Virus record (IMG/VR): IMGVR_UViG_2740892441_000001 | DNA: 64,000 nucleotides | Reading direction: 5' to 3' (one strand) | Origin: a virus | Lineage: Duplodnaviria; Heunggongvirae; Uroviricota; Caudoviricetes | In this document: piece by piece, positions 7,433 to 23,563 of the stretch | Layout: the number at the start of each line of letters is the position of its first letter | Position numbering within the stretch: position 1 is the first letter of the stretch | Translations under genes and position numbers: made by a program | Notes under the pieces: generated by a model | What the model was told of the DNA's origin: nothing | Seen by the model: only the letters and a program-made list of their open reading frames with translations | Database searches by the model: none

Positions 7433-8112
7433 TACATACACTCCTTGTAGTAGTCGACCAGCCACACCAGAGCCTCACCAGCGTTCTCCATTTCATTACC
7501 GGTGTTAATAGCCTGCTCTTTGATGATGTTTTTTATGGTTTCTGCAACACGATCTGACGCATCGAAAGTTACTTTGAAGCGCATGGTCTGATGTTCCGCA
7601 CCCACACGTTCGGTTTTCTCTCGTTTGTCGGTATCGACAGGCTCATCACTACCACGAGACAACGCCTCCAGTGCTTCAAGGTCGATTGCCGCCTCTTTTG
7701 CTAAAACCATCGAGATTTCGTCGTCATACGGGGCGATTTCAGACAGTTGATAGTCAAGTTCTGACTGAATTTCTTCAATGAAGCGTTGCAATGCGATTTG
7801 GTCGTCTTCACCGTATCGCTCGTTGTCCACTAGTGACATCTGTTTAGCTACGACATCGCTAATTTTGCCCACAGAAAGCACCGGAACCGTTGAAATTCCT
7901 TGCTCAATAGCAGCACGCCAGCGATGTTCGCCGCCGAGGATTTCAAAAAATCCATCTTCAAGTTCACGAGCCAAAATTGGCTTAAAAAAGCCCAATTTTT
8001 CGATAGAACCTTTCAGTTTTTCAAAATTCTGCGCACCAACCGAATTGGTGTTCCAGGTATTCGGGCGAAGGTTGGCAACATCAACCTGCAAAATCGTGAT
8101 TTTTACATCCAT
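7432..8112 (-). CDS. ParB-like nuclease domain protein
   Basis: ParB/Srx signature FEILGGEHRWRAAIEQGISTVPV; first gene of the operon, divergent from helicase gene. Confidence 0.65.
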   Translation of the reverse strand: MDVKITILQVDVANLRPNTWNTNSVGAQNFEKLKGSIEKLGFFKPILARELEDGFFEILGGEHRWRAAIEQGISTVPVLSVGKISDVVAKQMSLVDNERYGEDDQIALQRFIEEIQSELDYQLSEIAPYDDEISMVLAKEAAIDLEALEALSRGSDEPVDTDKREKTERVGAEHQTMRFKVTFDASDRVAETIKNIIKEQAINTGNEMENAGEALVWLVDYYKECM

Positions 8113-8194
8113 TTTATTGCTACAATCAACTAAGTAATTACTTACTTATTATAATAGCCAAATAACATACAAAAGGCACTAAGGAAAGAGGTTT

Positions 8195-9754
8195 ATGACT
8201 GTTCGGATTGTATCTAACGCAGTAAATGCGCTTATTTCTGGCGCAGATGACAAGGTAAAGCAACTGGTGCAACAGATGTTGAGCTACGAAGTCGAGACTG
8301 GCGACTGGAAAGGCACAAGCACGATGTTCAACTGGAGTAAAAACTCGTTCCCTGCTGGCTTTGCCAAGCCTGTAGCGGCGAACTTGAACAAGGCGGGCAT
8401 CAAATGTGTTCATATCCGCAAAGACAAAGCCCCGGCGCTTGGAAAGCCAAATCCGGCGGTTAACCCATTCCCATACAATCCTGATTATGCGTATCAGGAT
8501 CAGACTGTGGAAACGCTAGTTCGCGAGGGAATGATGATTGCGCAGATCGCTACTGGTGGCGGAAAATCTAATGTTGCCTGCAAAGCAGCTGCACGTATCG
8601 GTCGAATGACATTATTTTTAACAACCCGCTCTGTTCTGATGTTTCAGATGGCCGAAAACTTCCAGAGATCCATCGACTACCGCGCCGAAAATGGCGAACC
8701 GTGGTTAAAAGACCAAAAGGTTGGAGTAATTGGCTCGGGTGAGTTCCAGGTATCGCGACATATCAACGTTGCTACAGTTCAAACTCTTGCAAGTTTCCTC
8801 GAAGAACCACCACGCGATGCAACACCAGATAAGAAAAGCTACCACCTCAAACGTCGGGAGTTGGTGAAACGCTTCCTTTCAAGTGTCTCTCTTCTTATTC
8901 TGGAAGAGGCGCATGAGTCTTCAGGCTCTAATTTCTATGACATTGCCAGATTATGTGCGAACGCAGACTATCGCCTGGCGCTTACGGCAACGCCGTTCAT
9001 GAAGGATTCTACGGAAGCCAACATGCGTCTGATGGCTGTGGCCGGGCGAATTGAAATAAAAGTCACGGAAAAGTACCTGATTGATAAAGGCATTCTGGCA
9101 AAGCCATACTTCCTTTATCATAAAGTTGCCTACAAACCGGACGAGGTCAGAATCAAGGCAGAACTTGCTAACAAACACCTCAATTTTAGAGTAGGTATGA
9201 GCACTGCCTACCAAAAGGCTTATCAGTTGGGGATCGTGTATAATTTGGGACGTAACGAGGCCATTGTGCGCGAAGCATTGCTCTATAAGCAACACTCTCT
9301 CAACTGCATGACTCTGGTTCGTCTTAAACGCCACGGGCAAATCCTGATGGAGATGATGAAGGAGTCCGGTCTTAGAGTTGACTTCATCTATGGGGAATCG
9401 AACCAGGCGACAAGGCAAGCAAAGCTGAACAGTTTAGCGTCTGGTGAAATAGATGTTTTAATAGGCTCGACTATTCTGGATGTCGGTGTTGATGTGCCAA
9501 GCGTTGGTGCGGTCATTCTTGCTGGTGGCGGGAAAGCAGAAGTTGAAATGAGACAACGTGTCGGTCGTGGCTTACGAGCCAAGAAGAATCAGGCAAACGT
9601 GTGTTTTATCACTGATTTCATTGACATTAGCAACAAATACCTGTTGTCTCACTCTTATGAGCGAAAACACATCATCGACACTACACCTGGCTTTGCAGAA
9701 GGTGTATTGCCTATTGATGGCGCATTCGATTTTGGAGTTCTGAAACGAGATTAG
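8195..9754 (+). CDS. Superfamily-2 DEAD/DEAH-box helicase
   Basis: Motif I IATGGGKSN, motif II ILEEAHE, motif III LALTATP, motif VI RQRVGRGLRA; RBS AAGGAAAGAGG. Confidence 0.8.
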   Translation: MTVRIVSNAVNALISGADDKVKQLVQQMLSYEVETGDWKGTSTMFNWSKNSFPAGFAKPVAANLNKAGIKCVHIRKDKAPALGKPNPAVNPFPYNPDYAYQDQTVETLVREGMMIAQIATGGGKSNVACKAAARIGRMTLFLTTRSVLMFQMAENFQRSIDYRAENGEPWLKDQKVGVIGSGEFQVSRHINVATVQTLASFLEEPPRDATPDKKSYHLKRRELVKRFLSSVSLLILEEAHESSGSNFYDIARLCANADYRLALTATPFMKDSTEANMRLMAVAGRIEIKVTEKYLIDKGILAKPYFLYHKVAYKPDEVRIKAELANKHLNFRVGMSTAYQKAYQLGIVYNLGRNEAIVREALLYKQHSLNCMTLVRLKRHGQILMEMMKESGLRVDFIYGESNQATRQAKLNSLASGEIDVLIGSTILDVGVDVPSVGAVILAGGGKAEVEMRQRVGRGLRAKKNQANVCFITDFIDISNKYLLSHSYERKHIIDTTPGFAEGVLPIDGAFDFGVLKRD

Positions 9755-9756
9755 TT

Positions 9757-10035
9757 ATGAGCGAAAAGAAAACAACTTATTGTCAGGTAGCATTGACTGA
9801 TAAGGCCAATGACAAACTGGGAAAATTTCAAATGAAACTAAAAGAAAAAAACATCAAAATGTCCAAGGCTGAAGTTATCAATACCATTCTGGAGACGATG
9901 ACGATGGCTGAATTTGACAAGGTTTCATCTGCCGTTGGCGTCTCTGCTAAGGCTCGTGAAAAAATCATGCGCATCTATGAGAACTCTAATATGACAAAGG
10001 AAGACCTAGAACAAATTCTAAGCAAACTGCCATAA
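9757..10035 (+). CDS. Hypothetical small protein, coupled to helicase
   Basis: 92 aa ORF starting 2 nt after helicase stop. Confidence 0.5.
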   Translation: MSEKKTTYCQVALTDKANDKLGKFQMKLKEKNIKMSKAEVINTILETMTMAEFDKVSSAVGVSAKAREKIMRIYENSNMTKEDLEQILSKLP

Positions 10036-10177
10036 CATTTCACATTCCCTCCATCCGCCAATTCCAAGATGTGCTTACTTGTAAAAGGAGCACATCAATT
10101 GATGTGGCAGAGAATGAATTTAATCAAGACAAACATTGAATGATTAATAGACTACGATAGTGTCCAACAGGGCATTC

Positions 10178-10200
10178 TCATGTGACATTTGTCACATTTT
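10178..10200 (+). terminator. Rho-independent terminator-like hairpin (CATGTGACA..TGTCACATTTTT)
   Basis: Perfect inverted repeat followed by T-run, downstream of 9757-10035. Confidence 0.5.
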
Positions 10201-10287
10201 TAACCGCATAAGTCTCCGGCTGAAAAAAGTTCTTGATTGGCTGAATGATATTTGTAGGCTTATCAATGTTTAGAGCCGGAGGTGTGA

Positions 10288-10830
10288 ATGGGTGTACTTG
10301 ACATTGATAGTAATTACTTAAGTGCAAGGCGAATAAAGGAATGTGTTCATATCTATTGTAAATCAAAGCAGTCTTGTTTAGAAAAGCAGGCGTACCTAAC
10401 ATCTTCTCAAAAAGGAGAGCACAAACTCATCAAATATAAACTAAAGGCTTCGCGCAAAGATCGTTATGAGCACTATATATATGTAAAGGATATTGAAGGC
10501 ACCAAGACAAATTGCGGTATTATCTTTTATCCCTATGATATATCAAGACTGTTCTCCATTATGAAATCCTGTGTCGGCGTAGCTCCAGGTAAATTAGAGT
10601 TGCATTCAAACTTATACGATTACCCAAATGCTCAAAAACAGATAAACGATAGCACTTCGCCCTATGGATTTTCGTTTCTCTTTAAGAATCATCTCGCATT
10701 GAAAGATTTCATCGAAAAATACAATGAAGGAATAATATCAGGCGAATTAAATTTCAACAAAATCTGCGGAGATATAAAAAGGGACGACCTCTTAATAGAT
10801 ATTTACAATAGAATCCAAGTTAACGTGTAA
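10288..10830 (+). CDS. Hypothetical protein (low-GC accessory gene)
   Basis: 180 aa ORF, AT-rich codon usage distinct from neighbours. Confidence 0.5.
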   Translation: MGVLDIDSNYLSARRIKECVHIYCKSKQSCLEKQAYLTSSQKGEHKLIKYKLKASRKDRYEHYIYVKDIEGTKTNCGIIFYPYDISRLFSIMKSCVGVAPGKLELHSNLYDYPNAQKQINDSTSPYGFSFLFKNHLALKDFIEKYNEGIISGELNFNKICGDIKRDDLLIDIYNRIQVNV

Positions 10831-10857
10831 CCATCCATTAATCATAGCCAGACAAAT

Positions 10858-11277
10858 ATGAAAGTAACAAACCTAATTATTCTGACACTAGCCACATCAC
10901 TAATTGGGTGTTCATCTTCATCTATATCTGTTTCAAAGGCAAAGTATGCGCCTCAAAGCAGAATATTTAAATATCAAACACCACATGAGTCTAGTCTAAC
11001 AATAGTTAGAGACAAAGGGCTGGTTGGTTCTGGATGTAACGCTTCCATATTCATCAATGGAGAAACGGCAGCAAAATTGGAACCTGGTGAAAAAGCAACT
11101 TTCTATCTTAATGAAGGAGATTGGATCGTTGGGACATCAATTGAAAGTTCAGGTCTTTGCGCATTTAACCCCTCTAGGATGGAGCGAGAAATAAAACTAA
11201 AGCAAGGCGACGCGAAAACATATCGGGTTTTCACTACCTGGGATGGTACAATGGATATATTGCCAACCACTTTATAA
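10858..11277 (+). CDS. Putative lipoprotein
   Basis: N-terminal signal peptide MKVTNLIILTLATSLIGCSSS with lipobox LIGC. Confidence 0.6.
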   Translation: MKVTNLIILTLATSLIGCSSSSISVSKAKYAPQSRIFKYQTPHESSLTIVRDKGLVGSGCNASIFINGETAAKLEPGEKATFYLNEGDWIVGTSIESSGLCAFNPSRMEREIKLKQGDAKTYRVFTTWDGTMDILPTTL

Positions 11278-11806
11278 TGATATGACGACGAAAGACATCA
11301 CCTACGGTGTGCCAGCAGAAGTCTGGCCTCGAGATTACACTAACGTTGAAAAACTACTGATGTTCTGGCGCAGAGAACAAATTCCTGTAAGGGCCACTCT
11401 AGAAGATGGCCAGGCGTTTTGCATGTACGTTTATGGCCTCATGCCATCTCGTAACAAAGTTGACCTTTGCCCAGCCCCTTTTGACAAAGAAAATCGTATA
11501 AGGCTCCCACTTGAACGCATTAGTACAATTGAATCAGGTGTGGTTGACAGTATCGCTCACGATTTCAAAGGTCGATTAACAGTTCACCCTGATTATGTCG
11601 ATAATCGGCCATCACGCCGCGATTTTTTTGCTATTTGCAACCAAGCCTATAAAGCAAACAAATCTATAAGGGTGTACATGGCGGATGGCCGTGAAATTGA
11701 GGGGGTGTCAGCAGGCGCAGATGCTTGTCAGGTTACACTACGTGTCGAGAACGGTAGAAAAATAGTTATTTTGTTCGATTGGGTTGAACGAATTTTGCCT
11801 TTTTGA
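11243..11806 (+). CDS. Hypothetical protein
   Basis: 187 aa ORF; true start may be the internal Met at ~11281. Confidence 0.45.
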   Translation: MVQWIYCQPLYNDMTTKDITYGVPAEVWPRDYTNVEKLLMFWRREQIPVRATLEDGQAFCMYVYGLMPSRNKVDLCPAPFDKENRIRLPLERISTIESGVVDSIAHDFKGRLTVHPDYVDNRPSRRDFFAICNQAYKANKSIRVYMADGREIEGVSAGADACQVTLRVENGRKIVILFDWVERILPF

Positions 11807-11809
11807 GTT

Positions 11810-12118
11810 ATGAAATCGATATTGTTACCACCATTATTTTTACTTTGCTCAGTTGCAGCAAATGCAATGGACTATAAGCCTGTCATTCAGTCGCTGATGA
11901 ATGACGTGTGCTCAACGTCTCAGAATGTATCAGTTTGCATGTATCAATTTTCGGCAGCCGTAAAAGCAGGAAAAGCGATAGGTGAGAATGTGGAACTGTG
12001 TAAGAAAGTGGCAAATGAAGAACGAGCAATGTTGGATTGCGAATCTAGCGAGTCATCGGCACAGTTCGTTGATGCGCTATTTGACACCAATCGTAAGGCT
12101 GTAGAGTCTGTCCAATAA
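11810..12118 (+). CDS. Small secreted protein
   Basis: Signal peptide MKSILLPPLFLLCSVAANA; 102 aa. Confidence 0.55.
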   Translation: MKSILLPPLFLLCSVAANAMDYKPVIQSLMNDVCSTSQNVSVCMYQFSAAVKAGKAIGENVELCKKVANEERAMLDCESSESSAQFVDALFDTNRKAVESVQ

Positions 12119-12337
12119 ATCTATAAGGTTAATAACCGGCTAAGTCCGGTTATTATTTTTCACATCACTTCTTTATATCTATAAATCAAACAACCTAAAT
12201 ATATAAGGTCGAAAGCCGGAATCGATTATTTATTTAGGGAACACCTTCGACGATCTCGCTTTTATTTCTAGGACTTTCATCCCTGCAAAAAAATTTAAAA
12301 AAACACTTGCAATCTTTTTTCGCGTATCGATAATTGA

Positions 12338-12399
12338 ACTCGTCGAAAGCGAAGATGCTAACGACAATAAATTTTAAATTTACATAAGGAAAAATTATC
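12338..12399 (+). promoter_or_regulatory. Sigma70-like promoter (TTGCAA - 17 nt - GATAAT) for 12400-13050
   Basis: Hexamers read directly upstream of RBS AAGGAAAAA. Confidence 0.5.
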
Positions 12400-13050
12400 A
12401 TGGCTAACATTATCATTTCTAAAAAATCCATCATTGAAGCTGCTTCCATTGTATCCGACGAGCTGCGCGAAAAAGCAGATCTGGCAACTCAAACATATAA
12501 CGAACATTATAAAAATGGTACGCACACTAAAGCAGACAAAGCAAATATGCAAGCTGCGACCACTAAACTTGCTTACTTCATCAACAACGTTGTAAACGCT
12601 GTTGAAGACGAAAAATTATGCTCTGTTTTCTACTATGCGATTAAAGCAAGCAAACAAGCGCCAGAAGTATTTTTCCGTGATGCAATGACTAATAGTTATT
12701 CACTGGAAAAACTGGTTTATCTGGTTAAATCTATTAAAGCTGGTAAATGCGTTTATTCCGTCGCTGATATGTCAGGATCTCGTGTATTCGCTTTAATCGA
12801 TATGATTAACGACGAGATCGACACGTTCACCAATGGCGCTGTTTTCGATTTAATGAATGAAGCTAAAAAAGCGTGTGAGATTAAATTGGACGCTGGCTAT
12901 ACTCAAGCCAACCAGTTGATCAATCTTTGCGAACGTCTCGGACTTGTTGAAAAAGTCAAAGGAGCTGGGAGCGCAAAAGCTGGTACTCAGCAATATCGCT
13001 TTATCAAGAATGATTTCTACAATTATCTAGCTGATGCTTTCAAAGCGTAA
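12400..13050 (+). CDS. Hypothetical protein
   Basis: 216 aa ORF with good RBS and own promoter; hairpin GCGCCCACTATGGGCGC at 13064-13080 downstream. Confidence 0.6.
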   Translation: MANIIISKKSIIEAASIVSDELREKADLATQTYNEHYKNGTHTKADKANMQAATTKLAYFINNVVNAVEDEKLCSVFYYAIKASKQAPEVFFRDAMTNSYSLEKLVYLVKSIKAGKCVYSVADMSGSRVFALIDMINDEIDTFTNGAVFDLMNEAKKACEIKLDAGYTQANQLINLCERLGLVEKVKGAGSAKAGTQQYRFIKNDFYNYLADAFKA

Positions 13051-13097
13051 TTAATGGAATCAAGCGCCCACTATGGGCGCTTTAAAGGAGCTTTAAA

Positions 13098-13301
13098 ATG
13101 GTCAGCTATGACAAGATCCGCGCGGAATATCGCGCAAAGTATCGCGCTTACAAACTGGAATTAATCGATGATTTGATCGCGCAACGCGACCAATTAAATT
13201 TTACGTTTTCTGATTTGCTTAACAGCAAGCGAGATTGCAAGCGCAAACGTGAATATTTACGTTTAAGCGCATTAATCGGAAAACTTCAAAATTCTATTTA
13301 A
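13098..13301 (+). CDS. Hypothetical small protein
   Basis: 67 aa, RBS AAAGGAG upstream. Confidence 0.5.
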   Translation: MVSYDKIRAEYRAKYRAYKLELIDDLIAQRDQLNFTFSDLLNSKRDCKRKREYLRLSALIGKLQNSI

Positions 13302-13321
13302 TTTTTTTAAGGAGCTTAATC

Positions 13322-13549
13322 ATGTTTGTTCTTATCGCTGGCGTTAACGTCCACAATGAATATTGTGTTAATGATATTGCTGGGATCGCTGGTTACGCTG
13401 GATCTGTTGAGCTTATAGATGAAACGACGCGCAAAATTGACTTATTGAGCGACCAGGAGCGAAAAAAAGCAGACGTGAACGACGCTGATATATTTTTAAT
13501 GTTAAAAGCGTTTGTAGAAATGGGATTTGAAATCAGTTTACATAAATAA
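13322..13549 (+). CDS. Hypothetical small protein
   Basis: 75 aa, RBS AAGGAG upstream. Confidence 0.5.
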   Translation: MFVLIAGVNVHNEYCVNDIAGIAGYAGSVELIDETTRKIDLLSDQERKKADVNDADIFLMLKAFVEMGFEISLHK

Positions 13550-13553
13550 AATC

Positions 13554-13578
13554 GAGCGCCCACTATGGGCGCTTTTTT
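13554..13578 (+). terminator. Rho-independent terminator (GAGCGCCCACTATGGGCGC + TTTTTT)
   Basis: GC-rich hairpin followed by T6; same stem as hairpin at 13064-13080. Confidence 0.8.
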
Positions 13579-13601
13579 CGTTTCCAATACTCCCACCATA
13601 A

Positions 13602-13628
13602 CGCGCCATCATTGGCGCGTTTTTTATT
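13602..13628 (+). terminator. Second tandem rho-independent terminator (CGCGCCATCATTGGCGCG + TTTTTTATT)
   Basis: Hairpin plus T-run read directly. Confidence 0.75.
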
Positions 13629-14029
13629 GTCTTTAACTCACTCCAACAACATAAAAATAAGCGCCAAAATAACGCCATAGACGCGATTTTATATCCTCGC
13701 CAGTACATACCCATTACTTAACACATTAACGCGCTTAAAACGCGTTATATTGCGCTATAGAGTATGGTTAATCGTTGGCTTTTAGTCTTGCTTTATGATC
13801 CGCGTTTATTTGTCGGCGCGGATCGGCATTTTGTTTTGTTCCGTATCCGCTCGCGTATTATGTGCGCGTGATTTTTCACATAATCACACCACTTAATCAC
13901 GTATGTGATTATGCTACGAAAGAAATCTGGATGTCTCAGGCGACGAAAGTCATCATAATTTTCCCCGCTCACCTGTCCGACAACCGCTGGTTGGATTCAA
14001 CCAGCTTCCCGATGTTTTTTCTATATAAA

Positions 14030-17949: not shown

Positions 17950-18500
17950 GTTTCAACCTCTCTATAGGCGTTAATGCTCACTCCTTCCAGAACGTTCTAT
18001 ACGGCAACTATTTCTGTTGGTGAATTGGGTGTGTTGTTTTCTCTGTCGGTGTATGTGGTTTCGTTCGTTTTGCGGTGGTTCTTCTATAGGGTGTTCTCGT
18101 CGTTTTGGTGATTGTTCTTCTCCGTCTATGGAGTAATGGCAGGTGGGCGATTCCTTTCGTTATTGTGTTTGAGTTGTTTGTCTGGAGTGCGTGAAGGGCT
18201 TTTGTAGTTATTCGTGTATTGGGTAATGGCGTTTCCCGTGATTGTTCTGTTTCGTGTCTTTTGGGATTGAAGAATCCTTGCGGTAACAGGCTTCGTTGGG
18301 GTTTCAGTGATTCTGGTGTTTCTTCGCTGTTTGGGTAATGGCGTGTCGTGGGTATCGCGCGTATGAATGTTTTCGGATTGCCTGTGAAAGTTAGGTTGGT
18401 TGTCCGGTAGCCTGGGAAGAAGAGGTGGGTCTTTTCGGTAGCCTGCCATAAAGAGGTTGGTTGTTTTTGGGAATGGCATATGCGTTATTTAGTTGTTTTG
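17950..18500. repeat. Strongly GT-skewed non-coding region built from degenerate tandem repeats
   Basis: Plus strand almost entirely G/T; repeated TTGGGTAATGGCGT units (~18135, ~18220, ~18335) and GGTAGCCTG units; overlapping ORFs have implausible T/P/Q/N-rich composition. Confidence 0.6.
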
Positions 18501-18866
18501 TTATGCCTGAAAATAAGTTGTTTATATGGTTATGTAACGCAACGGGAACGATTTTGAGCGTGTGTTTTTGTTGGTAGTGTGTTGGGTCGTCTGTGGTGAA
18601 AATTGGACGCTGTGGCGCTGTCTGCTGCGTAGGATTGCGGGTATAAGAAGTAATGTGTGAAAACGTCAATTTTTTAGACCAAATCGGGTGAAAGCGTTGA
18701 CGTTTCGTTGATCTGTTATTCAGTTGTTTTCTTGTTTGTATAAACAACTATAACCTATTGATATTTAAGGGTGTGATTGCAGGTATGGAAGGGGAGTAGT
18801 GGCGATCAACGGATTCTTATAGAAAAGAATCAAATTGTGACCGCCATTATCAATAAGTTGCAACCG

Positions 18867-19436
18867 TTAGTTGTTCAGATAAACATTTGGAACACGGACG
18901 TAGAAGTTCCTGTCACCGGTAAGTTCCAGAGTAATGTTAATGTCATTACCATTGTCTAGTGTAGCCGTTGCTCTATAGAACTTATCCGTCACCTTGTCCT
19001 CTATTGTCACCTTCATACATTTTGGTGCAGTCGAACCGTTATTCTCTTTCAGAATAGTTGTCACGAGAGGGCAGGCTGCTTCTTCAAGAGCAACCTCGTC
19101 CTTGTGTGGGATGCCGATGAAGATAATCCAAGCCAGCGACGCAACGATTATGATAAATGGCACTCTGCTGCCTTTTGTAATAGTCGCGCGCTTCCAGAGA
19201 TAGACAGGCAGGAGGAATACCCCCCATAGAATTGAAGGTGGTTCACAGCCAGACTCCGATAGAGCCATTCTGTCAGCTACTAACAAACCGATGGTAGTTA
19301 CACCCCCAATTATAATAGCGTAATTGGTATACTCTTCCGGCAATACTCCAAAGAAGAAAGGCATGAACGCTAGAATCCACGCATAAATGTTATTCAGAGG
19401 TTTTGTTTGTTGGTTCTGGGTTTCCATCACATCCAT
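18867..19436 (-). CDS. Putative membrane protein
   Basis: 189 aa with several hydrophobic helices (e.g. IYAWILAFMPFFFGVL, FIIIVASLAWIIFIGI). Confidence 0.5.
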   Translation of the reverse strand: MDVMETQNQQTKPLNNIYAWILAFMPFFFGVLPEEYTNYAIIIGGVTTIGLLVADRMALSESGCEPPSILWGVFLLPVYLWKRATITKGSRVPFIIIVASLAWIIFIGIPHKDEVALEEAACPLVTTILKENNGSTAPKCMKVTIEDKVTDKFYRATATLDNGNDINITLELTGDRNFYVRVPNVYLNN

Positions 19437-19588
19437 TCCATCACATAAAAATCGCTTTTATATATTATCAATTTTCTCACTTGTATAACCTAAATACGCA
19501 TCCGTTTATCAATCCACCTTCCACAAACATCAGCTTTGGCTATGAAAAATGACAATCTCAAAGTGAAACCATTATCATAGGATAACGA

Positions 19589-19774
19589 TTAGATGAGATG
19601 GTCTAATTCATCATCTATCATCGCTTTAACACTTGAGTCATTAACCCCGTATTGATTTATGAGCCGTTTCAGCTCCGGTGAAAACTGAAGGTAGATATCG
19701 TGGGCGTTTTTCACTGTAGGTTCAACGCCACGCATTTCAAGCGCCTTTAGTAGATATGAGTCTTCTTTAAGCAT
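19589..19774 (-). CDS. Hypothetical small protein
   Basis: 61 aa ORF in operon with 19811-20119. Confidence 0.4.
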   Translation of the reverse strand: MLKEDSYLLKALEMRGVEPTVKNAHDIYLQFSPELKRLINQYGVNDSSVKAMIDDELDHLI

Positions 19775-19810
19775 AAATTCTCCGTTATCTAGTATGAAGC
19801 GATTGCCGGA

Positions 19811-20119
19811 TTACCATTGCCAGCACTCAAGCCCTTCAACGACCGGTGCGCCACAATCAAAATGTACAGAGTCAAAGCCTACATCAAGTACTTTCTGAAT
19901 GTTCGCAATCGCGCCCTCGGATATACCATATCGACGCAACTCATCTTTCCAGTCATCGTCCTGTAACCCGGCGTGGACAATGCAACCGTACTCAATTTGT
20001 GAAACCCAATCCAGCTCATTGCTTGCGATCATGAATCGGCGAGCATCTTCCTCTGATGTATGAGATGAGCTGATCAATGCCACCTGGTAGGCTTGGGTAA
20101 TGTTCAACATTTCAACCAC
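19811..20119 (-). CDS. Hypothetical protein
   Basis: 102 aa; tandem conserved promoter elements at 20120-20195 upstream. Confidence 0.5.
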   Translation of the reverse strand: MVEMLNITQAYQVALISSSHTSEEDARRFMIASNELDWVSQIEYGCIVHAGLQDDDWKDELRRYGISEGAIANIQKVLDVGFDSVHFDCGAPVVEGLECWQW

Positions 20120-20271
20120 TCCGAAACAATTTGTTTTCTTATGTGGCTTATTATCTCAATCAACAAAAGGCAGAAAACAAATTGTTTTAGGGTTTGTTAA
20201 AGTCAGAAGGGATTGTGTCTATATGAAAATGCCCAGCGTATTGCCGGGCATTGTGAAGAATGGTTGCTTAA

Positions 20272-22305
20272 TTACTTAACCTGGTGGCCAGGTTTAGCAC
20301 CAGCATCCGGGCTTAACAGGAAGATGTCTTTCCCGCCGGGGCCAGCAGCCATCACCATGCCTTCGGAGATACCGAAACGCATTTTACGCGGAGCCAGGTT
20401 AGCCACCATAATGGTGTGACGGCCAATCAGTGCCTGTGGGTCTGGATAAGCGGAACGGATGCCTGAGAAGACATTGCGTTTTTCACCGCCGAGATCCAGC
20501 GTCAGGCGCAGCAGTTTGTCAGAACCTTCAACAAAGTCTGCGTTTTCGATCAGCGCCACGCGCAGGTCAACTTTGGCAAAGTCGTCAAAGGTGATGGTTT
20601 CCTGAATCGGGTCGTCTGCCAGCGGGCCAGTAACTGGCGCGGCAGTAGCTTTCACTTCTTCTTTAGACGCTTCCACCAATGCTTCCACCTGTTTCATGTC
20701 GATACGGTTATACAGTGCTTTGAACGGATTCACTTTATGGCCCAGCAGCGGTTGCTGGATACCATCCCAGGTCAGTTCTGTATTCAGGAATGCTTCTGCA
20801 CGTTCAGTCAGTTTCGGCAGTACCGGCTTCAGGTACGTCATCAGCACGCGGAACAGGTTAATGCCCATAGAGCAAATCGCCTGCAGATCGGCATCGCGTC
20901 CTTCCTGCTTCGCCACCACCCACGGAGCCTGTTCATCGACATAGCGGTTAGCCAGGTCAGCCAATGCCATGATTTCACGGATAGCTTTACCAAATTCGCG
21001 GCTTTCCCATGCTTCGCCAATCACTTCAGCGGCATCAGTAAAGGTTTTGTACAGTTGCGAGTCAGCCAGTTCGCTTGCCAGCACGCCGTCAAAACGCTTG
21101 TTGATAAAGCCTGCATTACGGGAGGCCAGGTTAACCACTTTGTTCACGATATCGGCATTCACGCGCTGAACGAAATCCTCCAGGTTGAGATCGATATCAT
21201 CAATGCGCGAAGAGAGTTTCGCAGTGTAGTAGTAACGCAGGCTGTCGGCGTCAAAATGATTCATCCAGGTGCTGGCTTTAATAAAGGTGCCGCGAGACTT
21301 GGACATCTTCGCGCCGTTCACCGTCACATAGCCGTGAACAAACAGGTTGGTCGGCTTGCGGAAGTTGCTGCCTTCCAGCATGGCAGGCCAGAACAGGCTG
21401 TGGAAGTAAACGATATCTTTACCGATGAAGTGGTACAGCTCGGCGGTGGAGTCTTTCTTCCAGTATTCATCGAAGCTGGTAGTGTCGCCGCGCTTGTCGC
21501 ACAGATTCTTGAAGGAACCCATGTAGCCAATCGGTGCGTCCAGCCAGACGTAGAAATATTTACCCGGCGCGTTCGGAATTTCAAAACCGAAGTAAGGTGC
21601 GTCGCGGGAGATATCCCACTGTTGCAGACCAGATTCAAACCACTCCTGCATTTTGTTTGCCACCTGCTCCTGCAACGCACCGCTGCGGGTCCATGCCTGC
21701 AACATTTCGCTGAAAGAGGGCAGATCAAAGAAGAAGTGTTCAGAATCACGCATTACCGGCGTAGCGCCAGAAACTACCGATTTCGGCTCAATCAGTTCAG
21801 TCGGGCTGTAGGTCGCGCCGCAAACTTCACAGTTATCGCCGTATTGATCTGGCGCTTTACATTTCGGACAGGTGCCTTTCACAAAACGATCCGGCAGGAA
21901 CATGCCTTTTTCCGGGTCGTACAACTGAGAGATAGTGCGGTTTTTAATAAAACCGTTCTCTTTCAGGCGAGTATAGATAAGCTCAGACAGCTGGCGGTTC
22001 TCTTCGCTGTGCGTCGAGTGATAGTTGTCATAGCTGATGTTAAAGCCTGCGAAATCAGTCTGGTGTTCCTGGCTCATTTCGCCAATCATCTGTTCCGGTG
22101 TGATACCAAGCTGCTGTGCTTTCAGCATGATCGGCGTACCGTGGGCATCGTCGGCGCAGATGAAGTTGACCTCGTGGCCGCGCATTCGCTGGTAACGGAC
22201 CCAGACATCAGCCTGGATGTGCTCCAGCATATGGCCGAGGTGGATTGAGCCGTTAGCGTACGGCAGCGCGCACGTCACCAGAATTTTCTTCGCGACTTGG
22301 GTCAT
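20272..22305 (-). CDS. metG: Methionine--tRNA ligase (methionyl-tRNA synthetase), enterobacterial type
   Basis: 677 aa from [26 protein letters not shown]... with HIGH (HLGH) and KMSKS motifs; recalled as near-identical to E. coli MetG; start reassigned to 22305. Confidence 0.97.
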
Positions 22306-22462
22306 AGTAGGCATTACTTCTTTGTAGTGAAAAGGGGCTTGATAGTAACAAAATGGCCTTATGTCTGCCATGTGATAACAGCATTTCTCATAAATGATTA
22401 AATGTCGTAGCTGGAGTACACTACAAGGCGACAATTGCGCAAATTAAAATAAAGGAGACGGG

Positions 22463-23563
22463 ATGAGCGAGTCCAAATCGCCGGATGCCCTGAGAGCAAT
22501 GGTAGCCGGTACGCTGGCTAATTTTCAGCACCCAACCCTGAAGCACAACCTGACTACGCTTAAAGCGTTACACCATGTTGCGTTGATGGATGACACACTG
22601 CATGTCGAACTAATCATGCCTTTCGTGTGGAATAAGCCTTTTGAAGACCTGAAAGAGCAATGTAGTGGTGATCTGCTCCGTATCACTGGCGCAAAGGCTA
22701 TCGACTGGAAGCTGTCGTACAACATTGCCACGCTTAAGCGCGTCAAAAACCAACCAGGCATTAATGGCGTTAAGAACATCATCGCCGTCAGCTCAGGCAA
22801 GGGCGGTGTAGGCAAATCGTCCACAGCAGTAAACTTGGCACTGGCGTTGGCTGCTGAAGGTGCGAAAGTTGGTATTTTGGATGCCGATATCTACGGTCCA
22901 TCAATTCCAACCATGCTGGGTGCGGAAAACCAACGTCCAACCTCACCGGACGGTACTCACATGGCACCTATCATGTCTCATGGCCTGGCAACCAACTCTA
23001 TTGGTTATCTGGTCACCGACGACAATGCAATGGTGTGGCGTGGACCGATGGCCAGCAAGGCGTTAATGCAGATGTTGCAGGAAACTCTATGGCCTGATCT
23101 GGACTATCTCGTTCTCGATATGCCGCCGGGCACTGGTGATATTCAATTGACGCTGGCGCAGAACATTCCTGTAACTGGTGCTGTTGTGGTAACTACGCCG
23201 CAAGATATCGCGCTGATCGATGCGAAGAAAGGCATTGTGATGTTCGAAAAAGTCGAAGTGCCGGTACTGGGTATCGTCGAAAACATGAGTGTGCATATTT
23301 GCAGTAACTGCGGTCATCACGAGCCAATTTTTGGCACCGGTGGCGCACAGAAGCTGGCCGAGAAATACAACACGCAGTTGTTAGGCCAAATGCCACTTCA
23401 TATCTCTCTTCGTGAAGATCTGGATAACGGAACACCAACCGTTATTAGTCGTCCAGATAGCGAATTTACGGCTATTTATCGTGACCTCGCAGATCGCGTT
23501 GCTGCCCAAATGTATTGGCAAGGTGAAGTAATACCTGGCGAAATCGCATTCCGCGCAGTGTGA
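22463..23563 (+). CDS. apbC: Iron-sulfur cluster carrier protein ApbC/Mrp (P-loop ATPase)
   Basis: 366 aa; deviant Walker A SGKGGVGKSS and CxxC motif (CSNCGH); divergent from metG with enterobacterial-type intergenic region. Confidence 0.95.
   Translation: MSESKSPDALRAMVAGTLANFQHPTLKHNLTTLKALHHVALMDDTLHVELIMPFVWNKPFEDLKEQCSGDLLRITGAKAIDWKLSYNIATLKRVKNQPGINGVKNIIAVSSGKGGVGKSSTAVNLALALAAEGAKVGILDADIYGPSIPTMLGAENQRPTSPDGTHMAPIMSHGLATNSIGYLVTDDNAMVWRGPMASKALMQMLQETLWPDLDYLVLDMPPGTGDIQLTLAQNIPVTGAVVVTTPQDIALIDAKKGIVMFEKVEVPVLGIVENMSVHICSNCGHHEPIFGTGGAQKLAEKYNTQLLGQMPLHISLREDLDNGTPTVISRPDSEFTAIYRDLADRVAAQMYWQGEVIPGEIAFRAV

Follow-up and report, generated by a model that had tools for sequence, protein, structure and literature searches.

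Accessory genes that carry their own promoter and terminator are known from lambdoid prophages as morons, and Cor and Llp are small lipoproteins that act in exclusion. FljA proteins prevent the translation of fliC mRNA, that is, they act after transcription (PMC2652032). Features of both kinds of system meet in the locus described here, four plus-strand genes (A to D) at positions 10288-12118 of a 64,000-nucleotide stretch of the IMG/VR virus record IMGVR_UViG_2740892441_000001 (Caudoviricetes). This whole stretch is called the window below. A sequence-only reading had taken the four genes for horizontally acquired cargo serving host interaction or superinfection exclusion, and had overlooked that C is a member of the FljA family. 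The tight packing of the four open reading frames (ORFs) and their coordinates were confirmed. In our opinion it is fairly probable that the block is a variable cargo slot of an SSU5-like phage-plasmid, arranged around this one conserved gene, which probably encodes an RNA-binding regulator. The genes are the following, with lengths in amino acids (aa):

10288-10830, plus strand: gene A, 180 aa, cytoplasmic, predicted YgaC-like fold, accessory
10858-11277, plus strand: gene B, 139 aa, lipoprotein with lipobox LIGC, accessory
11282-11806, plus strand: gene C, 174 aa, FljA family, core gene of the element
11810-12118, plus strand: gene D, 102 aa, periplasmic protein with signal peptide 1-19, accessory

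The RefSeq start at 11282 was used for C instead of that of the longer ORF from 11243, and the spacings A-B, B-C and C-D are 27, 4 and 3 nucleotides (nt). Window positions 8000-14000 are 100% identical to the Escherichia coli plasmid pEC00678_4 (NZ_OP378623.1, 109 kilobases (kb), non-mobilizable) and 97-98% identical to several other plasmids of about 110 kb from E. coli and E. albertii. Further matches were the Escherichia phages CMS-2020a, PhiR41_1 and Cyrano and the Salmonella phage SSU5. As pEC00678_4 is annotated with capsid, portal, terminase and tail genes beside ParB-like and replication genes, these annotations together with the plasmid and phage matches identify the window as an SSU5-like phage-plasmid.

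Distribution, composition and boundaries of the slot

Seventy-nine IMG/VR loci were fetched via the gene for a 216-aa protein, the downstream neighbour of the block (12400-13050), and 74 of them span the region between this anchor and the upstream neighbour, a gene for a 92-aa protein (9757-10035). Because the anchor is the downstream gene, the sample of loci is unbiased towards the block itself. C was present in all 74 loci and on the same strand throughout, with identities down to 27%. Genes of the B family were found in 42 of them, 32 in the same orientation (57-98% identity, except for one truncated copy at 35%) and ten inverted (about 30%), D was found in 23 and close homologues of A in four. 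The complete A-B-C-D arrangement recurs in few relatives (loci L053, L075, L079 and L080). Altogether, seven gene combinations occur among the anchored loci, and the length of the slot ranges from 944 base pairs (bp), where C stands alone, to 4050 bp.

Pooling all loci yielded 73 distinct slots in addition to that of the window. In this census C was counted in 74 slots, the B family in 42 and D in 24, while the A family, including divergent members of 162-377 aa, was counted in 19 and had a mean guanine-plus-cytosine (GC) content of 32%. Besides those of A to D, six gene families were found at the position, four of which encode lipoproteins or signal-peptide proteins; a 199-aa cytoplasmic protein was counted in 22 slots, a second lipoprotein family in 16 and a signal-peptide protein of 174-199 aa in 13. 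A, B and D are therefore swapped elsewhere, at the same position, for unrelated lipoprotein and signal-peptide families. Outside IMG/VR, a tblastn search with C matched 834 plasmid records, and in 825 of these the match was near full length. The records are distributed over Klebsiella (344), Escherichia (229), Enterobacter (92), Yersinia (62, mostly Y. pestis and including pMT1 of Y. pestis CO92) and Salmonella (60). Even a divergent Klebsiella lineage carries a homologue, 35% identical, at the same site, flanked by the helicase module and the 216-aa gene.

Both C and B are under purifying selection, with ratios of nonsynonymous to synonymous substitutions (dN/dS) of 0.08-0.17 and 0.05-0.09, respectively. 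The window and Cyrano share 99% identity in the helicase and 98% in the 216-aa protein, but only 78% in C (dS 1.3 versus 0.12-0.32), and the corresponding values for locus L057 are 99%, 100% and 67%. Judged from these alignments, alleles of C are exchanged though the presence of C is constant, which amounts to mosaicism. Since C occurs in 74 of 74 loci, against 4, 42 and 23 for A, B and D, we regard C as a core gene and the other three as mosaic accessory cargo. Absence from otherwise syntenic relatives, one of the marks of a moron, applies to A, B and D and not to C.

Base composition does not separate the block from its surroundings. Its GC content of 39.9%, against a mean of 46.1% for the window, is reached or undercut by only 4.8% of equal-sized windows, which bears out the earlier description of the block as GC-poor. 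Total GC and GC at third codon positions (GC3) are 34.6% and 36.5% for A, 39.0% and 28.6% for B, 45.0% and 38.9% for C, and 42.1% and 39.8% for D. When the 74 non-overlapping ORFs with 90 aa or more are ranked from low to high GC, A comes first, B 5th, D 9th and C 15th. No ORF has a lower GC3 than B, and each of the four lies in the lowest quarter for both measures. The codon-bias index is high for B and D only, so that the deviant codon usage ascribed to the whole block is marked for these two genes and does not extend to A and C. The contrast in composition with the neighbouring genes did not hold up, as the flanking small genes are equally AT-rich (37.7-39.2% GC): 38.0% for 9757-10035, 38.9% for 12400-13050, and 39.2% and 37.7% for the 67-aa and 75-aa genes at 13098-13301 and 13322-13549. 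The low-GC tract extends from about 9757 to 13550 and contrasts only with the upstream helicase gene (47.2%). With respect to a further mark of a moron, a composition unlike that of the surrounding genome, all four genes do deviate, but the core genes on either side are also poor in GC, so that composition alone does not mark the limits of the block. These limits were traced with the following features:

12130-12155 plus T-run (to 12160), plus strand: intrinsic terminator after D, 10-bp stem, -12.6 kcal/mol, conserved
10068-10096, plus strand: hairpin directly after the stop codon of the 92-aa gene, -14.8 kcal/mol, z -4.2, left edge of the slot
10180-10197, TTTT to 10201, plus strand: weak terminator-like hairpin upstream of A (ATGTGAC-ATTT-GTCACAT), -8.1 kcal/mol, z -4.2
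10233-10260, plus strand: candidate sigma-70 promoter for A-D (TTGATT, 16 nt, TAGGCT), picked by eye from the sequence

The terminator is part of the segment TAAATCTATAAGG-TAATAACCGGCTAAGTCCGGTTATTATTTT, which comes directly after the stop codon of C in relatives lacking D and after that of D where D is present. As this segment abuts the end of C when D is missing, D has been inserted between C and the terminator that belongs to C, and the right boundary of the slot is sharp at the level of the aligned sequences. On the left, most slot variants conserve the arms of the 10068-10096 hairpin (GATGTGCTy...GAGCACATC). Where the 199-aa gene is present, this hairpin encloses or overlaps the Shine-Dalgarno sequence and ATG of that gene, and it could serve as a translational control element. 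A hairpin plus T-run stands at the spot equivalent to 10180-10201 in L075 and L079, and the terminator consensus scan made no call for the one in the window. The block had been described as bounded by terminators; the strong one after D is real, but upstream there is only the weak hairpin that the scan left uncalled. The hexamers of the candidate promoter are also kept in L075 and L079, with a spacer that varies, and the candidate scored below the threshold of the promoter scan. With regard to the second mark of a moron, its own promoter and terminator, the terminator is clear but is common to the core gene C, and the promoter is a weak, conserved candidate.

Products of the four genes

All four products belong to PHROG phage families: A to phrog_31250, B to phrog_890 ('lipoprotein'), C to phrog_1444 ('transcriptional repressor') and D to phrog_9536. 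C matches the Pfam profile PF03614 (Flag1_repress, FljA) over positions 1-170 of 170 with 279.6 bits (cut-off 24, E 1.1e-83), and the same profile was found in all 77 homologues of C. One homologue, 61% identical and located on a 106.7-kb contig of the pHCM2 type, is named 'flagellar synthesis: repressor of fliC [Salmonella Typhi]'. A scan of genome contigs with the family alignment, aimed at chromosomal FljA, returned only six loci of the phage-plasmid type, and our literature search found no paper linking FljA to SSU5-type elements.

The AlphaFold2 model of C, built with 62 homologues, has a mean predicted local distance difference test score (pLDDT) of 80.9 and a predicted template modelling score (pTM) of 0.52. 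It consists of two consecutive units, each made of a helix and five strands (residues 20-85 and 112-173). The traits by which we recognised an Sm-like/Hfq fold, an N-terminal helix, five bent strands and structural similarity to Hfq or Sm proteins, are all present in the model. The Pfam Hfq profile matched the second unit weakly (E 0.006, below threshold), and the most conserved stretch of the protein, the N-terminal DITYG-PAEVWPRDY, lies where model confidence is low. C is thus predicted to contain two tandem Sm/Hfq-like domains, and both the model and the analogy with its family suggest that it may bind RNA. Such a tandem architecture fits the action of FljA, the block of fliC mRNA translation. 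Sequence searches of the PDB with B and C gave zero matches.

A is predicted to have a YgaC-like fold, with 18% identity to YgaC and no Pfam match, and a BFVD fold search with it returned nothing at E<=0.001. P0102 (348 aa), which is 58% identical over 97% of A, and a 377-aa ORF in L077 (776-1909) are longer relatives that end in a zinc-finger nuclease domain of the HNH type (Pfam HNH, E 3e-6). Such proteins of 348-377 aa occupy the same slot in other phage-plasmids.

The lipobox lipoprotein and the signal-peptide protein described earlier were both found, as B and D. The lipobox of B reads L15-I16-G17-C18, and C18 is invariant in alignments of 13 and 42 members, in which C60 and C101 are conserved as well. 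B matches phrog_890 with E 9e-51 and belongs to a large family of 135-150-aa lipoproteins, which includes chromosomal proteins of Pseudomonas; 899 cluster representatives match at E<=1e-3, and 201 match when the limit is E<=1e-10. B itself gave no match to DUF2846 (PF11008) at E<=0.1, and weak matches were seen in 6 of 13 and 9 of 42 relatives (best E 2e-5). A serine follows the lipobox cysteine of B at position +2, which suggests sorting to the outer membrane, and B is likely to be an outer-membrane, DUF2846-like lipoprotein. D starts with a Sec-type signal peptide ending A17-N18-A19, followed by a mature part of 83 aa with four cysteines. It matches phrog_9536 with E 5.8e-55 (profile from residue 20), has no Pfam match and could be placed in no family beyond PHROGs. 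From their sequences, only B and D are exported, and A and C are cytoplasmic. The functions of A and B are ones that we infer.

Alternative explanations and other features of the region

The whole block could be a single moron cassette, acquired horizontally for exclusion or host interaction and foreign to the backbone. This would agree with its low GC content, its one lipoprotein and one periplasmic protein, its terminal terminator and the recurrence of the A-B-C-D arrangement in four relatives. However, C is in every relative examined, irrespective of A, B and D, the four genes combine in seven ways, the core genes on both flanks are no less rich in AT, and the terminator belongs to C and not to a cassette. 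A single cassette is therefore largely refuted by the distribution data, and we hold it to be highly improbable. The claim of horizontally acquired moron-type cargo survives for A, B and D, which are patchy, AT-rich and replaced in relatives, and fails for C, the one gene of the four that is conserved in relatives as a core gene. A narrower proposal concerns A, which might be a defence or selfish gene of nuclease type in remnant or stand-alone form, with the YgaC-like domain as the targeting module of an HNH endonuclease. The form lacking HNH would then be a binding-only decoy or regulator, or be decaying, and the intact nuclease would reside in sister elements. P0102 and the 377-aa ORF of L077, in which an A-type domain precedes a C-terminal HNH domain, point in this direction, as do the sporadic distribution of A and its GC content, the lowest in the window. 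On the other hand, most members of the A family lack HNH, and these forms show conservation at 58-98% identity and a dN far lower than the dS, which is saturated; this speaks for function and against decay. Moreover, A has no PADLOC match and no match among viral predicted structures, and YgaC is itself of unknown function. We regard this origin of A as possible but doubtful.

The explanation that most directly concerns C is that it works as a flagellin repressor, by which the phage-plasmid converts its E. coli host through a block of fliC mRNA translation. Carriers would lose their flagella and so be safe from flagellum-dependent phages, save energy or hide flagellin from immunity, and B and D would be unrelated passengers. 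The membership of C in the FljA family over its full length and the name 'repressor of fliC' given in one source to its pHCM2-type homologue speak for this view. Against it, no flagellin gene stands beside C or is annotated on pEC00678_4, and a tblastn search of the window with E. coli FliC gave a best E of 0.25. Within 12 kb around C there is no recombinase or invertase of the hin or pinR type, the other genes near it being the helicase gene, ParB-like genes and genes for hypothetical proteins. Nor does the element contain a copy of the fliC leader, as only chance matches of 8-12 nt were seen. In addition, the homologues on 344 Klebsiella and 62 Yersinia plasmids, the latter mostly from Y. 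pestis, reside in hosts without motility, as Klebsiella and Y. pestis are non-motile organisms. Experimental work on FljA itself favours repression: without a working partner flagellin it yields non-motile, flagellin-less cells, and motile E. coli was made non-motile by a plasmid with fljA (PMC2652032). The transcripts of the Cyrano lysogen of E. coli LF82 can be read both ways, since they show that a C homologue is transcribed from a related element. CYRAN_114, 78% identical to C, reaches log2(fpkm+5) values (fpkm, fragments per kilobase per million) of 4.2 in stationary phase in lysogeny broth (LB) and 6.9-8.1 in four other conditions including macrophages (PMC9928086 Table S1). Yet LF82 shows 'very active motility' and produces flagellin (PMC5961443), so that a motile host transcribes the homologue. 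As homologues are found on 344 Klebsiella plasmids and one is transcribed in motile LF82, blanket silencing of fliC is unlikely; we treat it as a minority possibility, and think it improbable that C is a working flagellin repressor of its host. C probably has a conserved target other than, or in addition to, host fliC.

The block lies within a short plus-strand island that runs from the helicase gene (8195-9754) through 13549, and from which minus-strand ParB-like genes diverge. Two strong terminators at 13554-13621 end the island; they stand back to back (-31 kcal/mol as a pair), and one is palindromic and was called on the minus strand too. The AT-rich 92-aa gene at the left of the slot is kept in all relatives, and its Cyrano counterpart, CYRAN_117, is among the 'morons' listed as expressed during lysogeny in E. 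coli LF82, with a level 12-fold above background (PMC9928086). The 216-aa gene on the right has its own conserved promoter (TTGCAA-17-GATAAT, 12307-12334), and the TATAAGG motif occurs three times between the terminator and its start codon. Its leader contains a small conserved hairpin at about 12342-12365, (G/A)TCG-AA-AGC...GCT-AA-CGA(C/T), of -8.0 kcal/mol, with one apparent compensatory change (G-C to A-U) between clades. This leader hairpin was considered as a target of C and dropped: the same hairpin occurs beside C alleles that are 61-82% identical to that of the window, and hairpin and C allele show no specific co-variation. An Rfam scan of 9500-13800 gave nothing close to the gathering score.

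Two regions further downstream stand out. The unannotated, G+T-rich stretch of about 650 bp at 18000-18650 has a GC skew of +0.42 and an AT skew of -0.51 (in 18001-18500) and contains recurring GGTAATGGC-like motifs. Tandem Repeats Finder gave no array for it, and the stretch may represent an origin or an iteron-like region. At about 19313-22604, pEC00678_4 is annotated with the divergent neighbours metG (methionine--tRNA ligase) and apbC, and the higher GC fraction there (0.50-0.53) goes with what looks like a captured piece of host chromosome.

Proposed function and comparison with known systems

By analogy with FljA, the product of C would most likely bind the leader of a specific mRNA and block its translation. 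Recombination at the slot would exchange A, B and D as optional modules. Of these, A would be a small cytoplasmic domain of the predicted YgaC fold, joined to an HNH nuclease in a sister element, B a lipoprotein from a widespread family resembling DUF2846, and D a small periplasmic protein that contains cysteines. The close packing of the genes is that of a single transcription unit with the conserved terminator at its end, and they may be co-transcribed, the 10233-10260 sequence being a candidate for their promoter. They would probably be expressed from the resident plasmid-prophage, in which case B and D would alter the envelope of the carrier cell. The recurrent swap of exported families at one locus would fit a role at the cell surface, for which phage exclusion is the obvious candidate. 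Exclusion or host interaction would be the most likely purpose of B and D, and the superinfection-exclusion role proposed for them earlier is plausible. In the Cyrano lysogen, CYRAN_115, a different lipoprotein in the slot, has log2 values of 7.9-9.4 outside LB and is among the better-transcribed lysogen genes, whereas the structural genes CYRAN_1-14, from capsid to tail, are mostly at about 3-4 in the same table (PMC9928086 Table S1).

Several observations weigh against parts of this proposal. CYRAN_114 and CYRAN_115 were below the 5-fold 'moron' cut-off of the authors in LB stationary phase (PMC9928086). The candidate promoter is weak. RNA binding by C leans on family analogy and on a model whose pTM is only 0.52, and hhalign detected no significant sequence repeat between the two halves of the protein (probability 3%). 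None of the four products matched a PADLOC defence model at E<=0.1, and none of their PHROG matches is to a family annotated for exclusion. Finally, the B family is common in bacterial chromosomes, so that a phage-specific role is not required.

C has no partner flagellin, is found in non-flagellate hosts and is tolerated by a motile one, which suggests that the function of the family extends beyond flagellar phase variation. It is conceivable, though rather unlikely, that FljA-family proteins are in the first place core post-transcriptional regulators of SSU5-type phage-plasmids, acting as tandem Sm-like RNA binders on an mRNA other than fliC, and that the Salmonella repressor is a domesticated offshoot. 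Hin, which is related to phage invertases, offers a parallel for such a domestication. The changing exported proteins of the slot might then be under translational control by C.

Clinical E. coli, Klebsiella, Salmonella and Yersinia commonly carry SSU5-like phage-plasmids, with about 800 plasmid records. It is in this slot that their envelope-directed cargo varies most, which makes it a sensible site to search for exclusion and host-interaction functions, while the predicted tandem Sm-like fold of C provides a concrete and testable idea of RNA recognition. Public records already contain the genes themselves, under the names 'hypothetical protein' or 'transcriptional regulator', and mosaic cargo is ordinary in phages; the mildly surprising element is the orphan, host-independent conservation of an FljA homologue.

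Compared with known systems, A, B and D are like phage morons in that they are AT-rich and optional and lie as insertions amid conserved genes. With Cor and Llp, B shares that it is a small lipoprotein, but its slot is not next to tail-fibre genes and its family is widespread in chromosomes. A to D also differ from Cor, Llp and morons in that the PHROG and PADLOC searches gave no sequence relation to annotated exclusion or defence families, and in a terminator that is common to the core gene C. A differs from the enterobacterial, cytoplasmic YgaC (DUF2002, PDB 2g7j) by about 70 extra residues and by relatives that carry an HNH nuclease domain. With Hfq and Sm-like proteins C shares 12-20% identity, and it has two domains per chain instead of forming a ring of single-domain subunits; as WYL domains score similarly to Sm-like ones, the fold does not settle its ligand. 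C resembles FljA of Salmonella enterica, pBSSB1 and the E. coli alternative-flagellin loci in its match to the full-length PF03614 profile and in size (about 175 aa). It differs from a FljA gene that is co-transcribed with an adjoining alternative flagellin gene of the fljB type and switched by a neighbouring invertase, since C has neither a partner flagellin gene nor an invertible-promoter recombinase nearby. Moreover, C belongs to the core of a phage-plasmid lineage that also inhabits non-flagellate hosts, and an expressed homologue of C is tolerated by a motile host.

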